From the sequence record OL960577.1: 64,000 nucleotides of DNA. One strand, given 5' to 3'. The position numbers were made by a program, and so were the translations under genes. The notes below the pieces were generated by a model. The model had not been told where the DNA came from, did no database searches, and saw nothing but the letters and a program-made list of their open reading frames with translations. This stretch comes from Escherichia phage vB_EcoM_SA35RD. Below, piece by piece: positions 1,223-47,953 of this stretch; position 1 is the first letter of the stretch; each line of letters begins with the position of its first letter.

Positions 1223-1237
1223 GTAGTTGATGAATGT

Positions 1238-1267
1238 ATAGTATCAAAACCCTTGGAGGAAGTAAAC
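1238..1267 (-). promoter_or_regulatory. early promoter cassette upstream of denV, inside a 9-bp inverted repeat
   Basis: -35 GTTTAC (1262..1267), 18 bp, -10 TACTAT (1238..1243); inverted-repeat arms 1215..1223 and 1252..1260. Confidence 0.5.
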
Positions 1268-2069: not shown

Positions 2070-2528
2070 TTATAGGATAGTAGTGAGCACCTTATATAAT
2101 GATTTGCCCATCACATATTCCCATTGAGAAGGTTTAATTAAAGCGAACGCATCAAATTCAGGAATCTGTCGTCCGTCTGGGAATGTATGATAGGAATTAC
2201 AAGCACTGTTTCTGAATTGCTCGTGCTCTACAGGGATGGTATATAGGAACAGATGAATATTCTTATTGTCTGAGTAATGATGTTCACCTAGGTCTTTCAG
2301 GAAGGCAGGGTCATATTGTGTAAACCCAGTTTCTTCTTCGCATTCGCGAATAGCGGCTTCAATAGGAGATTCACCGGGCTCGACACGTCCTTTAGGAATA
2401 TCCCAGCGATGAGCTAAAGAACCTTTAGGACGAGAACCAGTTACACGCCCCATGAATAATTCTTTATCTTCGGTAAGGAAAATAATACCGGCTGATAGTT
2501 CTTTCACTTTATTTTTCTTACTCATCAT
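2070..2528 (-). CDS. nudE: Nudix hydrolase (NudE/e.1-like)
   Basis: 152 aa; Nudix box GRVEPGESPIEAAIRECEEETG; position immediately upstream of e as in T4. Confidence 0.85.
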   Translation of the reverse strand: MMSKKNKVKELSAGIIFLTEDKELFMGRVTGSRPKGSLAHRWDIPKGRVEPGESPIEAAIRECEEETGFTQYDPAFLKDLGEHHYSDNKNIHLFLYTIPVEHEQFRNSACNSYHTFPDGRQIPEFDAFALIKPSQWEYVMGKSLYKVLTTIL

Positions 2529-2754
2529 CTCGGTCCCATGATTTGGCCATTAATTCGGACATAAATTCTTCAATGCGCGTTTCTTTAGATGGACTTTCAC
2601 TATTAGAGACCGCAAGTTTGTAATCTGCAATAGGACAGAACATATCAAGATCCGTATTAAGGTCGTCTTTGATTTTTTCTTCTGACACATCTTTATCGTA
2701 TGTGTACAGATAACTATCACATGATTCTGATTTAATGTAAATTGCTATACTCAT
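2518..2754 (-). CDS. hypothetical small acidic protein
   Basis: ORF; start chosen at ATG 2754 (MSIAIY), which overlaps the stop of the upstream gene as ATGA. Confidence 0.5.
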   Translation of the reverse strand: MSIAIYIKSESCDSYLYTYDKDVSEEKIKDDLNTDLDMFCPIADYKLAVSNSESPSKETRIEEFMSELMAKSWDRDDE

Positions 2755-3242
2755 CTCAAATTCCTGCATTCAGTAATAAAACATTCAACTTCGTTATTCT
2801 TGGCCTTTATCTTGTCTTTACGTTCCTGTAAACTACTTTTAACAAGATTAATAATGATGCCTACAGTACCTCCACCAATTATACCGCCAATTATACTTAC
2901 GATAGCAGATGCTAATAAGATAGCAATAATATCAACAAAACCGAAAGAACTCACCTTAGTACTAAAAAACCATACCGACGGTACAAATATAATCCATCCT
3001 GTTATCCATTGGCACTTATTGAAAAACTTTTCAAGATCAGCTTGAGTTGTTCGTATTACTTCATCGATAGGTTGATATCCATTAATGTATCTGTTCACGA
3101 TAATACCTGCTGGTTTGTCGATTTTAAATTCTTGGCAAATACGTTTCACTAAGTAGGATGGACATCCTGTCCAATCCACTGAATAGTACGAAATACCTTC
3201 ATTGCCGTCGTCAATATTAGACCAATATGTTTTGTTAATCAT
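2751..3242 (-). CDS. small membrane protein, FIxECR-tail family
   Basis: 163 aa; hydrophobic segments WIIFVPSVWFF and IIAILLASAIVSIIGGIIGGGTVGIII; C-terminus ECFITECRNLR. Confidence 0.6.
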   Translation of the reverse strand: MINKTYWSNIDDGNEGISYYSVDWTGCPSYLVKRICQEFKIDKPAGIIVNRYINGYQPIDEVIRTTQADLEKFFNKCQWITGWIIFVPSVWFFSTKVSSFGFVDIIAILLASAIVSIIGGIIGGGTVGIIINLVKSSLQERKDKIKAKNNEVECFITECRNLR

Positions 3243-3928
3243 TACCAGCCTTCCATAGGGAATTCCAGATAAACTTGGGCATTGACGCGAATTTCATTGG
3301 TAATCTTTTTAACTCGGTCTGTATTACGAGATACACGTCCGAACCAACGCCATCCATTACTAATTGCACGAGAACCAGTGTGCCATGTTTGCCAATCAAA
3401 CTGAAGAAGAGTACGGTCTGGAGCTTCCCATTTCTCTAGTTCGCCTTTTTCGATTTTTTCGAGGACTTCTTTGTGCCACTGGCGATAGATAAGTTCGCCA
3501 TCAGGAATCTGACTGAACTCTGCAGTTCCTGTTGCAAAATGAGTAGGACACACATCAGCGTTAACAAGACCAAGAATATGTTCAGACAAATAGCGAGGAT
3601 TGTCATAGTCAGGTTGTCCTGCAGTAATAAAATGTTGACCAACCGGAATATCCGGGCGTGGTACGTCATCATGGTGATAACCTGGGATAGCAGGATACCA
3701 ACCAGGCATCAGCATGTGGACTCGTGAATCAAATACAACCTGGTCGGTGTTCCAATCATCTGGCAAGTTCATAATGAAAGAGCGAGTAATAGGACCGCCG
3801 TTATTATAAGCAAATTCTAAACTACAGTTGAAGAACATAGGCTCGTTCTTGATTTTATCATTAGAAATACCGCCGGCAAAACCACCTACTGCACGAGCTT
3901 GACTATTAAACACTTTAGAACTATTCAT
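3242..3928 (-). CDS. hypothetical protein, 228 aa
   Basis: Long ORF with SD GAGGAAAA; no confidently recognised domain. Confidence 0.6.
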   Translation of the reverse strand: MNSSKVFNSQARAVGGFAGGISNDKIKNEPMFFNCSLEFAYNNGGPITRSFIMNLPDDWNTDQVVFDSRVHMLMPGWYPAIPGYHHDDVPRPDIPVGQHFITAGQPDYDNPRYLSEHILGLVNADVCPTHFATGTAEFSQIPDGELIYRQWHKEVLEKIEKGELEKWEAPDRTLLQFDWQTWHTGSRAISNGWRWFGRVSRNTDRVKKITNEIRVNAQVYLEFPMEGW

Positions 3929-3929
3929 A

Positions 3930-4235
3930 TTATTTTCCTCGACATTCTTTAATGAAATTTTCTAGATTGGTAGATTCAATAGCTTTTTTACGAGCTTCTG
4001 CGTGTTCTTCTTCGGACAATTTACGTTTATAATTGACCCAGACATTATGGTCGAAACCAGTCGTGGCATATAATAACAATGCTCCAACGAATAGCAAAAA
4101 CGGCGATAAGAATACAAAACCAGGAACACCATCCATATCGTAAGCCTTTTGTAATACTGCAACAGAAAGAGTTGCGTAAAAAGGTGATGCAAGTATTGTT
4201 AAAAGACCAATTCGATTGGTTTCTGTTAATTTCAT
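3930..4235 (-). CDS. small membrane protein, FIxECR-tail family
   Basis: 101 aa; two hydrophobic helices; C-terminus ENFIKECRGK; SD GAGGAG; early promoter at 4267..4296. Confidence 0.6.
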   Translation of the reverse strand: MKLTETNRIGLLTILASPFYATLSVAVLQKAYDMDGVPGFVFLSPFLLFVGALLLYATTGFDHNVWVNYKRKLSEEEHAEARKKAIESTNLENFIKECRGK

Positions 4236-4266
4236 AATATTCTCCTCATGTTTTAATAGGACTACT

Positions 4267-4296
4267 ACTATAACATAGTCCTATCAGTTTGTACAC
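4267..4296 (-). promoter_or_regulatory. early promoter cassette with palindrome around the -10 (PeSL-like)
   Basis: -35 GTGTAC, 18 bp, -10 TATAGT; 8-bp inverted repeat ATAGGACT/AGTCCTAT (4257..4264 and 4278..4285). Confidence 0.5.
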
Positions 4297-4497
4297 TTAT
4301 TTTGACATTTCTTCGATGTCACGACGATACCCATCACGAACTTCACGAAGAGCTTCAAGGCCACACATAGGCTCGATACCAGTAATGTGAACTTGATTAA
4401 TCTGATACTCTACATCTTCTAACTGAGCGAAAACATAACGACGTTCTGCTGCACAACCAGGTTTAGCTTTACCGAAACGTTTATTCAAAGTAGTCAT
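4297..4497 (-). CDS. hypothetical small protein
   Basis: Start at ATG 4497 (MTTLNKRFGK) with SD GGAG, downstream of early promoter 4536..4565. Confidence 0.45.
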   Translation of the reverse strand: MTTLNKRFGKAKPGCAAERRYVFAQLEDVEYQINQVHITGIEPMCGLEALREVRDGYRRDIEEMSK

Positions 4498-4535
4498 TTT
4501 TATATCTCCATTCACTCATTTGTTTTGATAGGTCT

Positions 4536-4565
4536 ATAGTATCAACAACTACAGACCTTGTAAAC
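4536..4565 (-). promoter_or_regulatory. early promoter cassette (PeSL-like)
   Basis: -35 GTTTAC, 18 bp, -10 TACTAT; flanking inverted repeat AGGTCT/AGACCT. Confidence 0.5.
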
Positions 4566-4577
4566 TGTTTTGTGAAA

Positions 4578-5534
4578 TTATTTGAAAGGTTTTACCATAT
4601 GAAAGTTTTGTTTGAAACGCTTGACGTAATCGTCGTGTCCTAAGCTTTGGTACATACTTACTACTTTGCTATAATTTTCCCAAGCGAACTCACGGAACCA
4701 TCCTGATGTGATTGATGTACAGACCTTTTCAAGGGCCATCATAAAACTATCACGTGGATGGATTTTAAAGTCGTTAGGAATCTGAGAACGTTCTAATGCT
4801 AGTACACATGATTCTTCATATACACCGGCCAATTTGACCATTTCTGGTAATGATTCGAACTTCTCGCGTGAGGTCATGACTTCAGAACCATCTTTCATGT
4901 AAAATGTATAAGCCGGACGGTCTGTTAGTGCAATAGCTTCGTGAATAGTATCATGGTCATATGTATAGATGTCATCTTTAAAGAACGCACTTTTAGAAGT
5001 GTCAAGAACAGGGTGAGCATAGTTCAAGGTTTCTTTCTGGCGTTTCAGCATAATTTCAGTAAGTTCATCGTTCAGTTTAACACCTTTACCACGAAGATAC
5101 TGAATATGGTTCATAGTCTTTAAAAAGAATGGATTATTTTTCTTGAAACGATGAGACATCTTAATTGCAAGACATATCTCAGGAGTTGCCCAGTAAAACC
5201 CGTTCAAACGGTCTTTAGTCAAATTTTTCTTGGCGTATTTTAAAAGGTCATAAGAAGACGTGAAATCTTCAGGAGTGAGTTCACCGACTAATTCACGGAC
5301 ACTAGTGATTGCCGGAACAATATATGCTTCAAAATGAGTTTCGCGTCCATTATGGAAGCATTTGAAAACTTGGACATCAGGGTTATCTTGGTGAACATAT
5401 ACACCCATCATTTGATTTTTGAATGCATTCCAAGAACCTTGGTCCGCAATAAAGTCCCAATCACTATTTTTAATAGCGCTAGAATCAATAAGACCGTGAT
5501 AGTGAAGTGCACGAGAACCAATAACTAACATCAT
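4578..5534 (-). CDS. hypothetical protein, possible nucleotidyltransferase fold
   Basis: 318 aa; N-terminal LVIGSRALHYHG...DWDF resembles the GS...DxD motif of Pol-beta-type nucleotidyltransferases (ANT-like); fold call is tentative. Confidence 0.65.
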   Translation of the reverse strand: MMLVIGSRALHYHGLIDSSAIKNSDWDFIADQGSWNAFKNQMMGVYVHQDNPDVQVFKCFHNGRETHFEAYIVPAITSVRELVGELTPEDFTSSYDLLKYAKKNLTKDRLNGFYWATPEICLAIKMSHRFKKNNPFFLKTMNHIQYLRGKGVKLNDELTEIMLKRQKETLNYAHPVLDTSKSAFFKDDIYTYDHDTIHEAIALTDRPAYTFYMKDGSEVMTSREKFESLPEMVKLAGVYEESCVLALERSQIPNDFKIHPRDSFMMALEKVCTSITSGWFREFAWENYSKVVSMYQSLGHDDYVKRFKQNFHMVKPFK

Positions 5535-8668: not shown

Positions 8669-8917
8669 TTATTTGTACGAATTAATAATCTCTTCCATTT
8701 TATCCAGAACATGGATATCGATTATACGAGGAAGTGCCGAAAGATTAGAACCGTCGAAAGATTTAAGGTCTTCCAAAATAATATTTTCAATGGCCTTTAA
8801 AGCTTCCGCAGATTCTGATGCAGAATTAAATTCAGGAATTTCTCCAAAAAGACGTAAGAATGAACCAAAGTATTCTGCGGCGATTTCTTTAGCTTGTTCG
8901 ATATCAGACTTAAACAT
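8669..8917 (-). CDS. hypothetical small acidic protein
   Basis: Start at ATG 8917 (MFKSDIEQ), chosen because the promoter -10 at 8946..8951 lies inside the longer ORF. Confidence 0.5.
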   Translation of the reverse strand: MFKSDIEQAKEIAAEYFGSFLRLFGEIPEFNSASESAEALKAIENIILEDLKSFDGSNLSALPRIIDIHVLDKMEEIINSYK

Positions 8918-8945
8918 TTTGTTTTCCTCATTTGTTGGTGGAGTA

Positions 8946-8975
8946 ATCATATCACCATCCTTGGCGTTTGTACAT
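8946..8975 (-). promoter_or_regulatory. early promoter candidate (weaker match)
   Basis: -35 ATGTAC, 18 bp, -10 TATGAT. Confidence 0.35.
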
Positions 8976-9202
8976 TATTTTTTAATCAAGTTGACATAAA
9001 ATTCTGCATCTTCAGGGTGCATGCCTTCGCAGTATTCTTCAACCATGAACTTCTTAACAGCTTCATAAGGACCACTCAGATTAAGCTCAGTTGTCCAGAA
9101 CTTGGAATCTTGGACTGAATCGATATGAACTTCAGGGTGTCGGTTGCGAATAACTTCTTCGGTGTATTCATAATCAACGACATCAATACTAACTTTAGCC
9201 AT
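8975..9202 (-). CDS. hypothetical small protein
   Basis: 75 aa ORF; SD GAGGAAAA; promoter at 9231..9260. Confidence 0.55.
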   Translation of the reverse strand: MAKVSIDVVDYEYTEEVIRNRHPEVHIDSVQDSKFWTTELNLSGPYEAVKKFMVEEYCEGMHPEDAEFYVNLIKK

Positions 9203-9230: not shown

Positions 9231-9260
9231 ACTATAACATAAACTTACTTAGATGTAAAT
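9231..9260 (-). promoter_or_regulatory. early promoter candidate
   Basis: -35 ATTTAC, 18 bp, -10 TATAGT. Confidence 0.4.
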
Positions 9261-9413
9261 TATTTCAACGTCACCTTTAGCTGCTTTATAACCTTCAGCC
9301 CAAGATACAACAGAGTTTTTATCCGAGGATTCAAATTCAGGCATTGGACTTTCACCAATATTCACACAGTATGTTTCTTCATTTTCATCGAACCAAATAA
9401 TTAAAGTAGTCAT
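9249..9413 (-). CDS. hypothetical small protein (54 aa, absent from the ORF track)
   Basis: Own translation MTTLIIWFDENEETYCVNIGESPMPEFESSDKNSVVSWAEGYKAAKGDVEIIYI; SD AGAGGAG; promoter at 9444..9473. Confidence 0.45.
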   Translation of the reverse strand: MTTLIIWFDENEETYCVNIGESPMPEFESSDKNSVVSWAEGYKAAKGDVEIIYI

Positions 9414-9443
9414 TTTGTTTACTCCTCTGTAGTTGATAAGTCT

Positions 9444-9473
9444 ATAGTATCACCATCCTTGGTGCTTGTACAT
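9444..9473 (-). promoter_or_regulatory. early promoter cassette, part of the 47-bp module shared with 45531..45577
   Basis: -35 ATGTAC, 18 bp, -10 TACTAT; block 9407..9453 is identical to 45531..45577. Confidence 0.5.
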
Positions 9474-9480
9474 CATTATT

Positions 9481-9786
9481 TTATTTTTTCCAACTCAACA
9501 ACTTGTAATGTCCTTCATTCGTACGTGGTTTATCCCAAGAAATACTAATATATGATTCGCTGTCAATAGAAGTCGCCGGGTTTTTCTCTACCGTAAGACC
9601 TTCACTTTCCAGCCATTCAATAGTATTTGCGCATAAATCGGAAGAACACCTCATCGGGAACCGGCAAGATTTTTCACCTTTAGATGCTGCATCGTACATC
9701 TTTTCCAAAATACGCTTTTGCACGTTTTTAAAAATAGTTTCAGCAGATTCTTCAGATTTTTTATTCAGTTCAGTGTAAAGACTCAT
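9481..9786 (-). CDS. hypothetical small protein
   Basis: 101 aa; promoter at 9815..9843; several Cys residues. Confidence 0.55.
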   Translation of the reverse strand: MSLYTELNKKSEESAETIFKNVQKRILEKMYDAASKGEKSCRFPMRCSSDLCANTIEWLESEGLTVEKNPATSIDSESYISISWDKPRTNEGHYKLLSWKK

Positions 9787-9814
9787 AACATTTTCCTCTA
9801 TGGTTGATAAGTCT

Positions 9815-9843
9815 ATAGTATCATGTCCTTAGAAGAAGTAAAC
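9815..9843 (-). promoter_or_regulatory. early promoter cassette
   Basis: -35 GTTTAC, 17 bp, -10 TACTAT; downstream TAGACTTATCAAC core shared with 9444 and 45568. Confidence 0.5.
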
Positions 9844-11122: not shown

Positions 11123-11199
<77 letters not shown>

Positions 11200-11205
11200 A
11201 ATATA

Positions 11206-11279
11206 TGACCCAGACCAGATTCGAACTGGTAACCTTTCCCTTATGAGGGGACTGCTGCTAACCATTGAGCTACAGGGCC
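11206..11279 (-). tRNA. tRNA with anticodon CAU (Ile2 or Met type), no encoded CCA
   Basis: Manual fold: acceptor GGCCCTG/CTGGGTC (one U-U mismatch), anticodon loop CTCATAA, T-arm ACCAG-TTCGAAT-CTGGT; D-stem only 3 bp, so slightly irregular. Confidence 0.6.
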
Positions 11280-25851: not shown

Positions 25852-25876
25852 AGGGAGCCTTCGGGCTCCCATTTTT
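25852..25876 (+). terminator. rho-independent terminator after gene 8
   Basis: GGGAGCC-TTCG-GGCTCCC hairpin followed by ATTTTTG. Confidence 0.7.
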
Positions 25877-25880
25877 GTAT

Positions 25881-43646: not shown

Positions 43647-45215
43647 ATGACTACTATCAAAACTAAAGCTCAGCTCGTAGACAAATGGAAAGAACTGCTG
43701 GAAGGTGAAGGCCTGCCGGAAATCGCTAATAGCAAGCAGGCTATTATCGCTAAAATCTTCGAAAACCAGGAAAAAGATTTCGAAGTATCCCCTGAATATA
43801 AAGACGAGAAAATCGCTCAGGCATTTGGTTCTTTCTTGACCGAAGCTGAAATTGGTGGTGACCACGGTTATAATGCTCAAAACATCGCAGCAGGTCAAAC
43901 CTCTGGTGCAGTAACCCAAATTGGGCCGGCAGTTATGGGTATGGTTCGTCGTGCTATTCCTAATCTGATCGCTTTTGATATTTGTGGTGTTCAGCCTATG
44001 AACAGCCCGACCGGTCAGGTATTTGCTCTCCGTGCAGTATATGGTAAAGACCCTATCGCTGCTGGTGCTAAAGAAGCTTTCCATCCGATGTATGCCCCAG
44101 ACGCGATGTTCTCTGGTCAGGGTGCTGCTAAGAAATTCCCAGCTCTGGCTGCTGACACTACTACTGTTGTAGGTGATATCTATACTCACTTCTTCCAAGA
44201 AACTGGTACTGTATATCTGCAAGCTTCTGCTATCGTAACACTTGATTCTGGTGCAACTGATGCAGCTAAATTAGATGCAGAAGTTAAGAAACAAATGGAA
44301 GCTGGTGCACTGGTAGAAATCGCTGAAGGTATGGCTACTTCTATCGCTGAACTCCAGGAAGGTTTCAACGGTTCTACCGATAACCCATGGAATGAAATGG
44401 GCTTCCGTATCGATAAACAAGTTATCGAAGCTAAATCTCGCCAGCTGAAAGCTGCTTACTCTATCGAATTGGCACAAGACCTCCGTGCAGTACACGGTAT
44501 GGATGCTGATGCTGAACTGAGCGGTATTCTGGCTACAGAAATTATGCTAGAAATCAACCGTGAAGTTGTTGATTGGATTAACTACTCAGCACAGGTTGGT
44601 AAATCTGGTATGACCCTGACTCCGGGTTCTAAAGCTGGTGTATTTGACTTCCAGGACCCGATTGATATCCGTGGTGCTCGTTGGGCCGGTGAAAGCTTTA
44701 AATCTCTGTTGTTCCAGATTGATAAAGAAGCAGTTGAAATTGCTCGTCAAACCGGTCGTGGTGAAGGTAACTTCATTATCGCTTCCCGTAACGTAGTTAA
44801 CGTACTGGCTTCAGTTGATACTGGTATTTCTTACGCTGCACAGGGTCTGGCTTCTGGTTTTAATACCGACACTACTAAGTCTGTATTTGCCGGTGTACTT
44901 GGTGGTAAATACCGCGTGTACATCGACCAGTATGCTAAACAGGATTACTTCACCGTTGGTTACAAAGGCGCTAACGAAATGGATGCAGGTATTTACTATG
45001 CTCCTTACGTTGCACTTACCCCACTGCGTGGTTCCGATCCTAAGAACTTCCAGCCGGTAATGGGCTTTAAAACTCGTTACGGTATCGGTGTTAACCCGTT
45101 TGCTGAAAGTTCCCTGCAGGCTCCAGGTGCTCGCATCCAGTCCGGTATGCCGTCTATCCTGAACAGCCTTGGTAAGAACGCTTACTTCCGCCGTGTATAT
45201 GTAAAAGGCATCTAA
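43647..45215 (+). CDS. 23: major capsid protein gp23
   Basis: 522 aa; strong codon bias; strong terminator follows. Confidence 0.95.
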   Translation: MTTIKTKAQLVDKWKELLEGEGLPEIANSKQAIIAKIFENQEKDFEVSPEYKDEKIAQAFGSFLTEAEIGGDHGYNAQNIAAGQTSGAVTQIGPAVMGMVRRAIPNLIAFDICGVQPMNSPTGQVFALRAVYGKDPIAAGAKEAFHPMYAPDAMFSGQGAAKKFPALAADTTTVVGDIYTHFFQETGTVYLQASAIVTLDSGATDAAKLDAEVKKQMEAGALVEIAEGMATSIAELQEGFNGSTDNPWNEMGFRIDKQVIEAKSRQLKAAYSIELAQDLRAVHGMDADAELSGILATEIMLEINREVVDWINYSAQVGKSGMTLTPGSKAGVFDFQDPIDIRGARWAGESFKSLLFQIDKEAVEIARQTGRGEGNFIIASRNVVNVLASVDTGISYAAQGLASGFNTDTTKSVFAGVLGGKYRVYIDQYAKQDYFTVGYKGANEMDAGIYYAPYVALTPLRGSDPKNFQPVMGFKTRYGIGVNPFAESSLQAPGARIQSGMPSILNSLGKNAYFRRVYVKGI

Positions 45216-45239
45216 TCTTAATTGATTAAATCTTATTTT

Positions 45240-45264
45240 GGGAGACTTCGGTCTCCCATTTTTG
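45240..45264 (+). terminator. rho-independent terminator after gene 23
   Basis: GGGAGAC-TTCG-GTCTCCC hairpin followed by ATTTTTGGTTTT. Confidence 0.75.
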
Positions 45265-45267
45265 GTT

Positions 45268-45537
45268 TTATTTCTGTGCAATTTTGATGTAAGTTTTCAA
45301 AATATTTTGCCAATTAGGCATACCTTCTTGGACATACGCTGGAGAACCGTCTTTGTTTTTGAATGATGCAAGTTTATCAGTGGCCCAATAACCTTTAGCT
45401 CGAGCTTCAGAATCAACTTTCATCCATACTTTGTTGAAGGCATTACCATTAACTTTTGCACCATATTTTTCTACTAACTTAACTGCTTCAGCTTCTAGAA
45501 CTTTTAAAGTATCTCGTAAGAAACGTGCTTTAGTCAT
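45268..45537 (-). CDS. hypothetical small basic protein in the gene 23-24 intergenic slot
   Basis: 89 aa (MTKARFLRDTLK...); own early-promoter cassette at 45568..45597; opposite strand to the flanking late genes. Confidence 0.55.
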   Translation of the reverse strand: MTKARFLRDTLKVLEAEAVKLVEKYGAKVNGNAFNKVWMKVDSEARAKGYWATDKLASFKNKDGSPAYVQEGMPNWQNILKTYIKIAQK

Positions 45538-45567
45538 TTTGTTTACTCCTCTGTAGTTGATAAGTCT

Positions 45568-45597
45568 ATAGTATCACATACCAAATACGTTGTAAAC
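45568..45597 (-). promoter_or_regulatory. early promoter cassette within the late-gene block
   Basis: -35 GTTTAC (45592..45597), 18 bp, -10 TACTAT (45568..45573). Confidence 0.5.
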
Positions 45598-45603
45598 AAT
45601 CTT

Positions 45604-45611
45604 TATAAATA
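45604..45611 (+). promoter_or_regulatory. late promoter TATAAATA for gene 24
   Basis: Exact match 28 nt upstream of the ATG. Confidence 0.7.
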
Positions 45612-45638
45612 ATCTATATCACATAAGGAAAAAATGCA

Positions 45639-46922
45639 ATGAGTAAAATCCAAAAATTATTGCGTGAATCTACAACGTCTACTAGCAACTCAATTGGTCG
45701 CCCAAATCTCGTTGCTTTGACTCGCGCTACGACTAAATTAATATATTCTGACATTGTAGCAACACAAAGAACTAATCAACCTGTTGCTGCTTTTTATGGT
45801 ATCAAATATCTTAACCCAGATAACGAATTCACATTTAAAACTGGTGCTACTTATGCAGGCGAAGCTGGATATGTAGACCGAGAAAAAATTACTGAGCTCA
45901 CAGAAGAATCAAAAGTCACACTAAATAAAGGTGATTTTTTCAAATATAATAATATCGTCTATAAAGTGTTAGAAGATACACCATTTGCAGATATTCAAGA
46001 AAGTGATCTAGAATTAGCTCTTCAGATTGCAGTCGTTCATTTAAAGGTACGGTTATTTTCAGATGCAGCGGTAACAAACAAATTTGAAAGCTCTGATAGC
46101 GAAATTTCTGATGCAAGATTCCAGATTAATAAATGGCAAACTTCAGTCAAATCTCGTAAACTTAAAACTGGCCTAACGGTCGAATTAGCGCAAGATTTAG
46201 AAGCGAATGGATTTGATGCCCCTAACTTCTTAGAAGATTTGCTTGCTACTGAAATGGCAGATGAAATTAATAAAGATATTCTTCAGTCTTTAATTACTGT
46301 ATCGAAACGTTATAAAGTTACTGGAATTACTGACACCGGATTTATTGACTTGAGTTATGCATCAGCTCCAGAAGCAGGTCGTTCATTATATCGAATGGTG
46401 TGTGAAATGGTATCACACATTCAAAAAGAAACAACTTATACTGCAACGTTTTGTGTAGCCTCAGCCCGTGCAGCTGCTATTCTTGCTGCTTCTGGTTGGT
46501 TAAAACATAAGCCAGAAGATGACAAGTATCTTTCACAAAATGCTTATGGATTCTTGGCAAATGGATTACCTCTTTACTGCGATACCAACAGCCCGTTAGA
46601 TTATGTTATTGTGGGTGTTGTAGAAAATCTCGGCGAAAAAGAAATTGTAGGGTCCATCTTTTATGCTCCATACACTGAAGGAATAGATTTAGATGACCCG
46701 GAACATGTCGGTGCATTTAAAGTTGTAGTTGATCCAGAAAGCTTGCAACCGTCTATCGGATTATTGGTTAGATATGCGTTATCAGCAAATCCTTACACAG
46801 TAGCAAAAGATGAAAAAGAAGCGAGAATAATTGATGGCGGGGACATGGATAAAATGGCAGGACGTTCAGACTTGTCTGTTTTATTAGGTGTTAAACTACC
46901 AAAAATTATCATCGATGAATAA
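45639..46922 (+). CDS. 24: capsid vertex protein gp24
   Basis: 427 aa as T4 gp24; late promoter at 45604; bidirectional terminator follows. Confidence 0.9.
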   Translation: MSKIQKLLRESTTSTSNSIGRPNLVALTRATTKLIYSDIVATQRTNQPVAAFYGIKYLNPDNEFTFKTGATYAGEAGYVDREKITELTEESKVTLNKGDFFKYNNIVYKVLEDTPFADIQESDLELALQIAVVHLKVRLFSDAAVTNKFESSDSEISDARFQINKWQTSVKSRKLKTGLTVELAQDLEANGFDAPNFLEDLLATEMADEINKDILQSLITVSKRYKVTGITDTGFIDLSYASAPEAGRSLYRMVCEMVSHIQKETTYTATFCVASARAAAILAASGWLKHKPEDDKYLSQNAYGFLANGLPLYCDTNSPLDYVIVGVVENLGEKEIVGSIFYAPYTEGIDLDDPEHVGAFKVVVDPESLQPSIGLLVRYALSANPYTVAKDEKEARIIDGGDMDKMAGRSDLSVLLGVKLPKIIIDE

Positions 46923-46954: not shown

Positions 46955-47953
46955 TTATGATACTAATTCAATCCATGCAGGACGCAGAACATCTTGCACC
47001 ATTCGGACTAATTCTTTCTTAACAAGATTCGGATTATCAGATGATGTTAATACAATACCTTCACGAGAAGTTTCTTCCAGAATATCTTGAACAGTCAATC
47101 CCATCACTTTGCCAAAATCTTTTGGCGTTACAGTCCCAATCTTAGAAATCACATTATTAATACGATTTAATGTAACATAACAAGCTAGAACATCAAGCAA
47201 GTTTTTGTCAGTTTCGGTTAATGGAACCTGAGTTTTAATAGGCTTATCAGACTTTTTCTTTTCACTGAATTTAGAGTTCTTGCACTTAATAGCTACACGA
47301 GTACCGTTTGGCAGCCATTTAGGGAAACAGGGCTTCAGAACATAACCTTCTGCCGTATTATCACCAATAACATTAGCATCAAATACACAATTATTTGCTT
47401 CGACAAGGTCTTCTGACGCAGTAGCATTATAAGCGGCTAAGACGGAATCAAGGTCATTTGGAATCATGATAAGAGAATCAAATGTTCCACGACCAAGCAT
47501 TGGTGCCATTTTAAAACCGAATTCATTACAGAAATCTTGCATTTCATAATCGGTCAAATACGTATTATCACCACTTTCTGTATTGATAAGGATATCGAAC
47601 ACATAAAAATCTTTTTCACCGTAGTCAACACCTTTCTGGATTCCACCACCGGCGAATTCACCGAATACTTGATATGATACAGCTCGAGCTGTGTACATGA
47701 ATTCCTGAACGGCTTTAATAGCTTTATCATACTTCTTGAGTACGATTTCATAACCATAAAAATCTTCTGCTGGAAGAATAGGGCCTGTGCGCTTGGCGCA
47801 TGTGACGTTGTCACGTTCAATTATTAACGAGAAGTTGGTCCCATGGATTTTCTCACGTGCTACCCAAACACCGGTAGTCAAACCATTAGTGTAGAGTTTT
47901 TCAATAAACTTAGAGTTGTAGTGGTTTTCAAGACTGCTGTATTTCTTAAACAT
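46955..47953 (-). CDS. rnlB: RNA ligase 2
   Basis: 332 aa; [21 protein letters not shown]...[14 protein letters not shown] (KxHG adenylation motif) near-identical to T4 Rnl2. Confidence 0.95.

Follow-up and report, generated by a model that had tools for sequence, protein, structure and literature searches.

A putative early accessory cassette on the minus strand between the head genes 23 and 24 of an RB69-like phage

Introduction

Small accessory cassettes named PeSLs (promoter-early plus stem-loop) have been described in T4-type phages (Arbiol et al. 2010, PMC2839356; Comeau et al. 2014, PMC4122927), and the consensus of their early promoter for the phage pair PST and T4 is TTTACW-N17-TAYWAT (PMC4122927). 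In T4 the spacer between genes 23 and 24 holds segD, encoding a free-standing GIY-YIG homing endonuclease. A review of 2010 reported that no segD promoter was findable, considered transcript levels probably vanishingly low and suggested read-through from the promoters of 24.2 and rnlB (PMC2988022). In the supplements of a later study, segD is assigned to the early RNA class and the middle protein class, and SegD was detected by mass spectrometry (PMC9697503). A third kind of accessory unit is the moron of lambdoid phages, in which a gene with its own promoter and terminator is inserted between conserved genes.

In this study, we analyzed a stretch of 64,000 nucleotides from Escherichia phage vB_EcoM_SA35RD (OL960577.1), hereafter the window, in which the same spacer, or slot, holds a gene for a protein of 89 aa. 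The slot gene is already known: many deposited genomes list its product as hypothetical. We describe its cassette, its protein family and the states of the slot among relatives, and compare the locus with the systems above.

Results

Locus and architecture of the cassette

The window belongs to Mosigvirus, the genus of RB69-like T-even phages. Over 661 bases around the locus it is 100% identical to Escherichia phage vB_EcoM_EP32a and 99.2-99.5% identical to HX01, JS09, PhAPEC2, ST0, APCEc01 and other isolates; two near-identical records, PhAPEC2 and O157 typing phage 3, were checked for their genus and both are Mosigvirus. Since gene 23 ends at 45215 and gene 24 starts at 45639, positions 45216-45638 are exactly the spacer between the two genes (Table 1). 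On the minus strand the cassette consists, in order, of an early-type promoter, a short leader with a Shine-Dalgarno sequence, the 89-aa ORF and a hairpin. It is wedged between the terminator of gene 23 and the late promoter of gene 24, and stands back to back with the latter. An earlier note, made from the letters alone, had placed this interval between genes 23 and 24 and had read in it a basic 89-aa protein transcribed against the flow of the late genes from an early-type promoter, between that terminator and that late promoter, with a leader made of a 47-bp module shared with the e-tRNA region. The flanking coordinates, the strand and position of the ORF, the isoelectric point of its product, the promoter, the hairpin, the late promoter and an exact second copy of the module all bear out this description. 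We consider the architecture (terminator, minus-strand unit of promoter, ORF and hairpin, late promoter), together with the ORF being a real gene, to be very probably correct.

Table 1. Positions of the features of the window that are discussed in the text
Feature	Position	Strand	Remark
Gene 23	43647-45215	+	
Gene 23 terminator hairpin GGGAGAC-UUCG-GUCUCCC	45239-45258	both	8 pairs, UUCG loop
89-aa ORF	45268-45537	-	ATG start; RB69ORF188c homologue (PHROG 6003)
47-bp module	45531-45577	-	spans -10 element, leader, Shine-Dalgarno, ATGACTA
Shine-Dalgarno GAGGAG (contains GGAG)	45546-45551	-	8 nt before ATG
Extended -10 TGaTACTAT	45568-45576	-	fits TAYWAT consensus for PST/T4 PeSLs (PMC4122927)
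-35 element GTTTACA	45591-45597	-	6 bp from late promoter on other strand
Late-promoter core TTTATAAA	45600-45611		nearly palindromic
Gene 24 late promoter TATAAATA	45604-45611	+	read from sequence; also in RB32 empty slot and T4
Gene 24	45639-46922	+	
rnlB	46955-47953	-	
Second module copy	9407-9453	-	47/47 identical; precedes 54-aa ORF
54-aa ORF	9249-9413	-	TACTATAGACYTATCAA core locus
Partial module copy	9794-9823	-	28/30 nt; precedes 101-aa ORF
101-aa ORF	9481-9786	-	TACTATAGACYTATCAA core locus
TACTATAGACYTATCAA core locus	~4524-4544	-	
TACTATAGACYTATCAA core locus	1223-1246	-	
93-aa ORF	8669-8950	-	
ATGTACAA-N-C-N-CCAAGGATGGTGATA-like motif	~8951-8976		upstream of 93-aa ORF
ATGTACAA-N-C-N-CCAAGGATGGTGATA-like motif	~9449-9474		upstream of 54-aa ORF
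Gene e start	near 2035	-	
tRNA genes	11123-11279		
Second UUCG-loop hairpin GGGAGCCTTCGGGCTCCCATTTTTG	25853-25877	+	92% identity to gene 23 terminator

The hairpin is stable on both strands, with folding energies of -16.1 and -13.5 kcal/mol and z values of -4.3 and -5.4, respectively. A run of T follows on the plus side only; after the hairpin the minus strand reads AAAAUAAG, where the U-tract is absent. The hairpin is the terminator of gene 23 on the plus strand and also the 3' boundary of the minus-strand cassette, and the 3' end of the cassette transcript is left undefined by the absence of a U-tract on that strand. An equivalent hairpin occupies the same place in the empty slot of RB32. 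An Rfam search of the spacer gave sub-threshold matches only. Elsewhere in the window, a second hairpin with a UUCG loop resembles this one closely, and the terminator type appears to be reused within the phage.

Promoters and leader

The minus-strand promoter is composed of TTTACA (45596 to 45591), a spacer of 17 nt and TACTAT (45573 to 45568), with TG upstream of the -10 element, and fits the PeSL consensus TTTACW-N17-TAYWAT. A consensus scan of this AT-rich 1 kb returned two sites against 2.6 expected, which is chance level when taken alone. Four other T-even lineages, however, have the element in the corresponding position. A common layout, rc(TATAAATA)-AAG-N2-3-GTTTACA-N17-(-10) followed by a GGAG Shine-Dalgarno sequence, was seen upstream of the slot gene in PhAPEC2, KAW3E185, IME341, VR7 and EAWsc9, and in a 173-kb metagenomic contig (P0006) with GTGTACA as the -35 element. 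The same layout precedes segD in T4 (NC_000866, ~107253-107281 on the minus strand; 4754-4782 of the extracted stretch), where the -35 region is ATTTACA and TTTACA-N17-TATTAT with TG fits 10 of the 12 consensus positions; its position relative to the late promoter of gene 24 is the same as in the window. The empty slot of RB32 lacks the early-type promoter altogether. Comparative support for this putative promoter is thus much stronger than the consensus match alone.

These observations suggest that segD of T4 is not promoterless, contrary to the review and in agreement with the published T4 omics. The early RNA class of segD and the detection of its protein provide experimental support for early expression of the slot minus strand in T4, although the early RNA over segD could be read-through from the 24.2 and rnlB promoters. 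Judged from its promoter together with the segD data of T4, the slot gene of the present phage is likely to be expressed early.

The late promoter of gene 24 has a nearly palindromic core, and the minus strand there reads TATAAAGA, one mismatch from TATAAATA and upstream of the early -35 element. TATAAA is also kept on the minus strand, at two mismatches, as TATAAAGT in T4 and as TATAAAAG in the slots of Dhakavirus and Gaprivervirus. Weak late transcription of the slot gene may start from TATAAAGA. The leader is unstructured (folding energy -0.1 kcal/mol). Its Shine-Dalgarno sequence contains GGAG, at which the T4 nuclease RegB cuts early mRNAs.

The repeated module

The 47-bp module that reaches from the -10 element into the first codons of the slot gene recurs, without a single difference, before a 54-aa ORF and in part before a 101-aa ORF (Table 1). 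Five occurrences of its 18-nt core TACTATAGACTTATCAAC are found in the window when up to three mismatches are allowed, against 0.03 expected. The label of e-tRNA region is accurate for the second copy, given the positions of gene e and of the tRNA genes on its two sides.

The -10 element and leader core TACTATAGACYTATCAA is common to several small minus-strand ORFs between gene e and the tRNA genes, and the same core is found in the slot gene of Dhakavirus, as TAATATAGACCTATCAAA. The initially transcribed sequence is therefore conserved, beyond the promoter hexamers. In the same region, a 93-aa ORF of the window is missing in the closest relatives; in O157 typing phage 3, for instance, 84% of the query is covered and the span is about 306 bp shorter. 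Motifs resembling ATGTACAA-N-C-N-CCAAGGATGGTGATA lie upstream of this ORF and of the 54-aa ORF, and the indel is a motif-associated one of the kind described for PeSLs.

The 89-aa protein and its family

The slot ORF is the same gene as RB69ORF188c, without any difference from its family PHROG 6003, which it matches over its full length (E 2.9e-45; residues 1-89 on profile positions 1-90 of 90); ORF173c of JS98 and VR7ORF190c are distant forms of it. The product has a mass of 10.1 kDa, an isoelectric point of 9.8 and a net charge of about +7.5. In the PhAPEC2 record the slot gene is annotated as hypothetical, 'similar to RB69ORF188c'; its product differs from that of the window at one residue in 89, with slot and strand unchanged. 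A total of 238 phage records with a homologue were found by tblastn. About 119 of them, including PhAPEC2 and O157 typing phage 3, reach at least 80% identity and, among the matches listed, all of this group are in Escherichia or Shigella phage genomes of about 160-170 kb; about 119 lie at 31-37% identity, including VR7 and EAWsc9 (Gaprivervirus) and IME341 (Dhakavirus).

Searches with a profile in two very large protein collections yielded 9 and 30 matches. The inspected matches are proteins of 41-104 residues, after two repetitive giants and a marginal match of 160 aa (E 1e-3) were set aside. Thirty family members were accepted at E<=0.01, and the 24 full-length ones were aligned. Values of dN/dS for the informative pairs range from 0.08 to 0.20, a sign of purifying selection; together with the family matches and the predicted fold they show the ORF to be a real protein-coding gene. 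From the 24-sequence alignment AlphaFold2 predicts, with a pLDDT of 94.7 and a pTM of 0.81, an alpha-alpha-beta-beta-alpha fold consisting of helices 3-25 and 31-48, a beta-hairpin at 52-70 and a helix at 76-88. Six residues are invariant (K3, F6, G31, N32, N35 and Q70), and a motif (V/P)NGNAxN marks the start of the second helix. A first structure model from 7 sequences (pLDDT 64) was dropped in favor of this one.

Neither the fold nor the sequence has an informative counterpart in the databases searched, and no signature of an enzyme or of a known domain was seen. Pfam gave nothing beyond a sub-threshold match to DUF4859, which we regard as noise (E 0.0029; 17.9 bits against a cut-off of 22.6; matched by 3 of the 24 family members). 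NCBIfam and PADLOC gave no match, the models of PADLOC covering defence proteins and not counter-defence; a profile search against PDB sequences gave nothing significant; and Foldseek found no match in PDB and only a family member in BFVD. Several candidate identities were rejected. A remnant of SegD is not indicated, since BLASTP against T4 SegD aligns 17 residues only (E 0.022) and the GIY-YIG domain is absent. The matches to the giant repetitive proteins (P0013, E 4.8e-16; P0016, E 3.3e-8) are summed noise from repeats of 2-13 bits each with independent E values of at least 1e4, and the part that they match is modelled as helical. The database names 'glycosyl hydrolase family 25' (EAWsc9, 1167-1448 of the extracted stretch) and 'NADPH-dependent curcumin reductase CurA' (the P0006 contig, JGI) are backed by no search. 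The literature searched contains nothing on the function of RB69ORF188c, including its 173c and 190c forms, the matches to ORF188c being ORFs of other phages; nor does it contain anything on transcriptomics of Mosigvirus (RB69).

Disrupted forms of the gene were found in two isolates. In phage mogra (MN850579, 65653-65918) the ORF is split into two pieces with a 51-aa product annotated, and in 310Ecol104PP (P0015) a shortened product of 64 aa is annotated. These suggest that the slot gene is dispensable in laboratory culture.

Family members outside the T-even phages

A homologue is present in Acinetobacter phage ABPH49, an rV5-like member of Vequintavirinae, and a copy with 95.5% identity to it was found in a 141-kb contig. 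In ABPH49, in this contig and in a 75-kb contig the homologues lie within arrays of small unannotated ORFs, which in the two contigs are almost all without a Pfam match. In a 46-kb lambdoid-like contig (P0027) the homologue is located amid genes for NinX, Ead/Ea22 and a primase-helicase. There it has its own terminator and a promoter TTGACG-N17-TATACT, and its ribosome-binding region AGAGGATAAACAAAATG is nearly the same as that of the window. A search of complete E. coli genomes found no lambdoid-type homologue. Comparison of these genomes shows that the slot gene has moved horizontally.

The family also bears on whether the peptide matters at all. The cassette might act in cis, as an insulator or as an antisense RNA against the 3' end of gene 23 or the leader of gene 24. 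The back-to-back early and late promoters, 6 bp apart, would suit such a role, as would transcripts running antisense into gene 23 past a hairpin without a minus-strand U-tract, and in T4 the promoter is retained before another gene. Yet the coding sequence is under clear purifying selection with a confident predicted fold, the ORF recurs in unrelated genomic contexts, and the empty slot of RB32 is devoid of the promoter. We judge this explanation very improbable.

States of the slot among relatives

A survey with a 2-kb query across the slot distinguished four states. The slot is empty in RB32, whose 83-bp spacer contains the hairpin and TATAAATA only; a short span, with no feature listed between the two genes, is also present in most other sampled Tequatrovirus records and in the T4-like Klebsiella phages. 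The ORF alone is found in the window, PhAPEC2, VR7 and EAWsc9 and the 173-kb metagenomic contig. The third state, segD alone, was inspected in T4; RB18, T6 and PST have T4-type segD at matching genome positions. In the fourth, represented by Dhakavirus IME341 and Mosigvirus KAW3E185, the ORF is followed 3 bp later on the same strand by a segD homologue with 56-58% identity to T4 SegD. The slot homologues of Dhakavirus and Gaprivervirus have about 35% identity to the ORF of the window. Two tandem paralogues of gene 24 were observed downstream of the slot in Gaprivervirus (VR7, 331-2895 of the extracted stretch), Dhakavirus (IME341, 2218-4458) and the 173-kb contig (1337-3901); gene 24 is single in the window and in T4.

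The earlier note had pointed to a seg gene of T4 in an intergenic slot of this part of the late region and had seen no seg endonuclease here. T4 does have segD (GIY-YIG) there on the opposite strand (PMC2988022), and no GIY-YIG gene was found in the slot of the window. Its implication that the ORF stands in place of a seg gene did not survive the survey: the two are not alternatives, because both are present, 3 bp apart, in IME341 and KAW3E185. The synteny comparison with T4 and the RB phages that it had proposed found segD in T4, an empty slot in RB32 and the gene present here, with a slot organization that varies over the four states.

The slot of KAW3E185 is further informative. This phage is 98-100% identical to the window over most of genes 23 and 24, falling to 90% in the last 100 nt of gene 23, and its slot ORF has 31% identity to that of the window and 94% to that of IME341. 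The cassette stretches compared were 1175-2104 of the extracted stretch for KAW3E185 (MK373782) and 1175-2116 for IME341. With flanks like those of the window and an ORF like that of IME341, the whole cassette, endonuclease gene included, must have been imported across the genus boundary. The swap has one junction within the last ~100 nt of gene 23 and the other shortly before the start of gene 24, and it was probably a co-conversion during homing rather than recombination at promoter or hairpin motifs. The comparison shows the 23/24 slot to be a small plastic site, at which genera exchange whole cassettes.

The linkage in IME341 and KAW3E185 raises the question of whether the ORF is tied to segD, as a helper or protective partner or as a landing pad with the homing site at its 3' end, and was here left without the endonuclease. 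The segD homologue shares strand and promoter with the ORF and begins 3 bp beyond its stop codon, about 38 records have that segD type at 80% identity or more, and in KAW3E185 the endonuclease gene and the foreign ORF allele arrived together. JK45 is another segD-positive Dhakavirus. The association is, however, not general: the Dhakavirus-type segD (~38 records at >=80% identity) is far rarer than the ORF (~240), all inspected slots of Mosigvirus type and of Gaprivervirus have the ORF without segD, and T4 has segD without the ORF. The ORF is also without sequence similarity to SegD, and the two homologues with annotated surroundings, in ABPH49 and in P0027 (the latter by Pfam), are without an adjacent endonuclease. 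A tie to segD is in our view improbable.

The same survey bears on a head-related function, such as that of an assembly chaperone or a minor or decoration protein. The place in the head gene cluster is conserved in three genera, Mosigvirus, Dhakavirus and Gaprivervirus, as well as in the unclassified 173-kb contig, and could instead reflect a capsid-related role; the near-late-promoter sequence TATAAAGA on the minus strand would agree with it. However, the gene runs opposite to the late operon behind a sigma-70 early-type promoter, and the same head is built by phages with an empty slot: RB32 and, judged by span, most of the Tequatrovirus records sampled and T4-like Klebsiella phages. The ORF is disrupted in viable isolates, and none of the outside homologues is in a structural module: those of ABPH49 and of the 75-kb and 141-kb contigs are in small-ORF arrays and that of P0027 is beside replication genes. 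A PHROG match to an internal virion protein is very weak (E 0.13). These points make a head-related function quite unlikely, even more so than a tie to segD. Each of the three alternatives thus has some support and stronger evidence against it.

Discussion

We favor, with somewhat better than even confidence, the interpretation that the locus is a real, self-contained early accessory cassette encoding a dispensable, host-directed protein. Host RNA polymerase with sigma-70 would transcribe the slot gene from its T4-early-type promoter in the first minutes of infection. The product would serve as a dispensable accessory factor that binds a macromolecule of the host, which may be nucleic acid or a protein of the host or of its defences, with a role as in host takeover or counter-defence; it would be neither a capsid component nor an enzyme. 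The host-directed role is drawn from the usual role of dispensable early genes common to unrelated phages of the same hosts, and by this analogy its chance is about even.

A broader proposal, which we put forward tentatively and think less likely than not to hold in full, is that the RB69ORF188c family represents a new early host-takeover or counter-defence protein with an orphan fold, horizontally mobile among T-even, rV5-like and lambdoid-like phages. The slot would then be an expression socket loaded with such genes and with segD, whose homing would carry ORF alleles across genera as in KAW3E185.

We did not find in the literature the four-state 23/24 slot, the ORF-segD operon of Dhakavirus, the cross-genus swap in KAW3E185, the conserved early-type promoter before T4 segD or the confidently predicted orphan fold. 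The four states constitute a natural experiment on the loading and exchange of accessory genes and homing endonucleases in the rigid head cluster of T4. A basic protein of 10 kDa that is confidently folded and horizontally mobile is also a candidate for screens of host takeover and counter-defence. By itself, the locus is a further case of a small phage gene without an assigned function, carried by a cassette of known type.

Compared with the known systems, the cassette is most readily placed beside the PeSLs. Like them it has a fitting early promoter, a stem-loop and a small gene without an assigned function; it also has a motif found in several places of the genome, and the gene is plastic, non-essential and set in a conserved core. 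It differs in that its stem-loop doubles as the terminator of gene 23 and has no U-tract on the cassette strand, and in that the repeat runs from the -10 element through the Shine-Dalgarno sequence into the first codons, whereas the PeSL repeat is made of stem-loop and promoter; the junctions of the KAW3E185 swap are in the 3' end of gene 23 and the leader of gene 24 and not in promoter or hairpin. With segD of T4 it has in common the slot, the minus strand and the position of the promoter relative to the late promoter of gene 24, but the proteins are unrelated, SegD having 223 aa and the product of the slot gene 89 aa without GIY-YIG. Like lambdoid morons, it forms a transcription unit of its own that separates two conserved genes and that some close relatives have and others lack, and one family member (P0027), preceded by a terminator and a promoter, is itself found in a lambdoid-like contig; classic morons, however, are expressed from prophages, whereas the slot gene belongs to a virulent phage, with expression expected early in the lytic cycle. 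Since the gene is already deposited and PeSL and moron cassettes are already described, the cassette is not of a new type. We regard it as an unremarkable case of a PeSL-like or moron-like accessory cassette, a kind already known.
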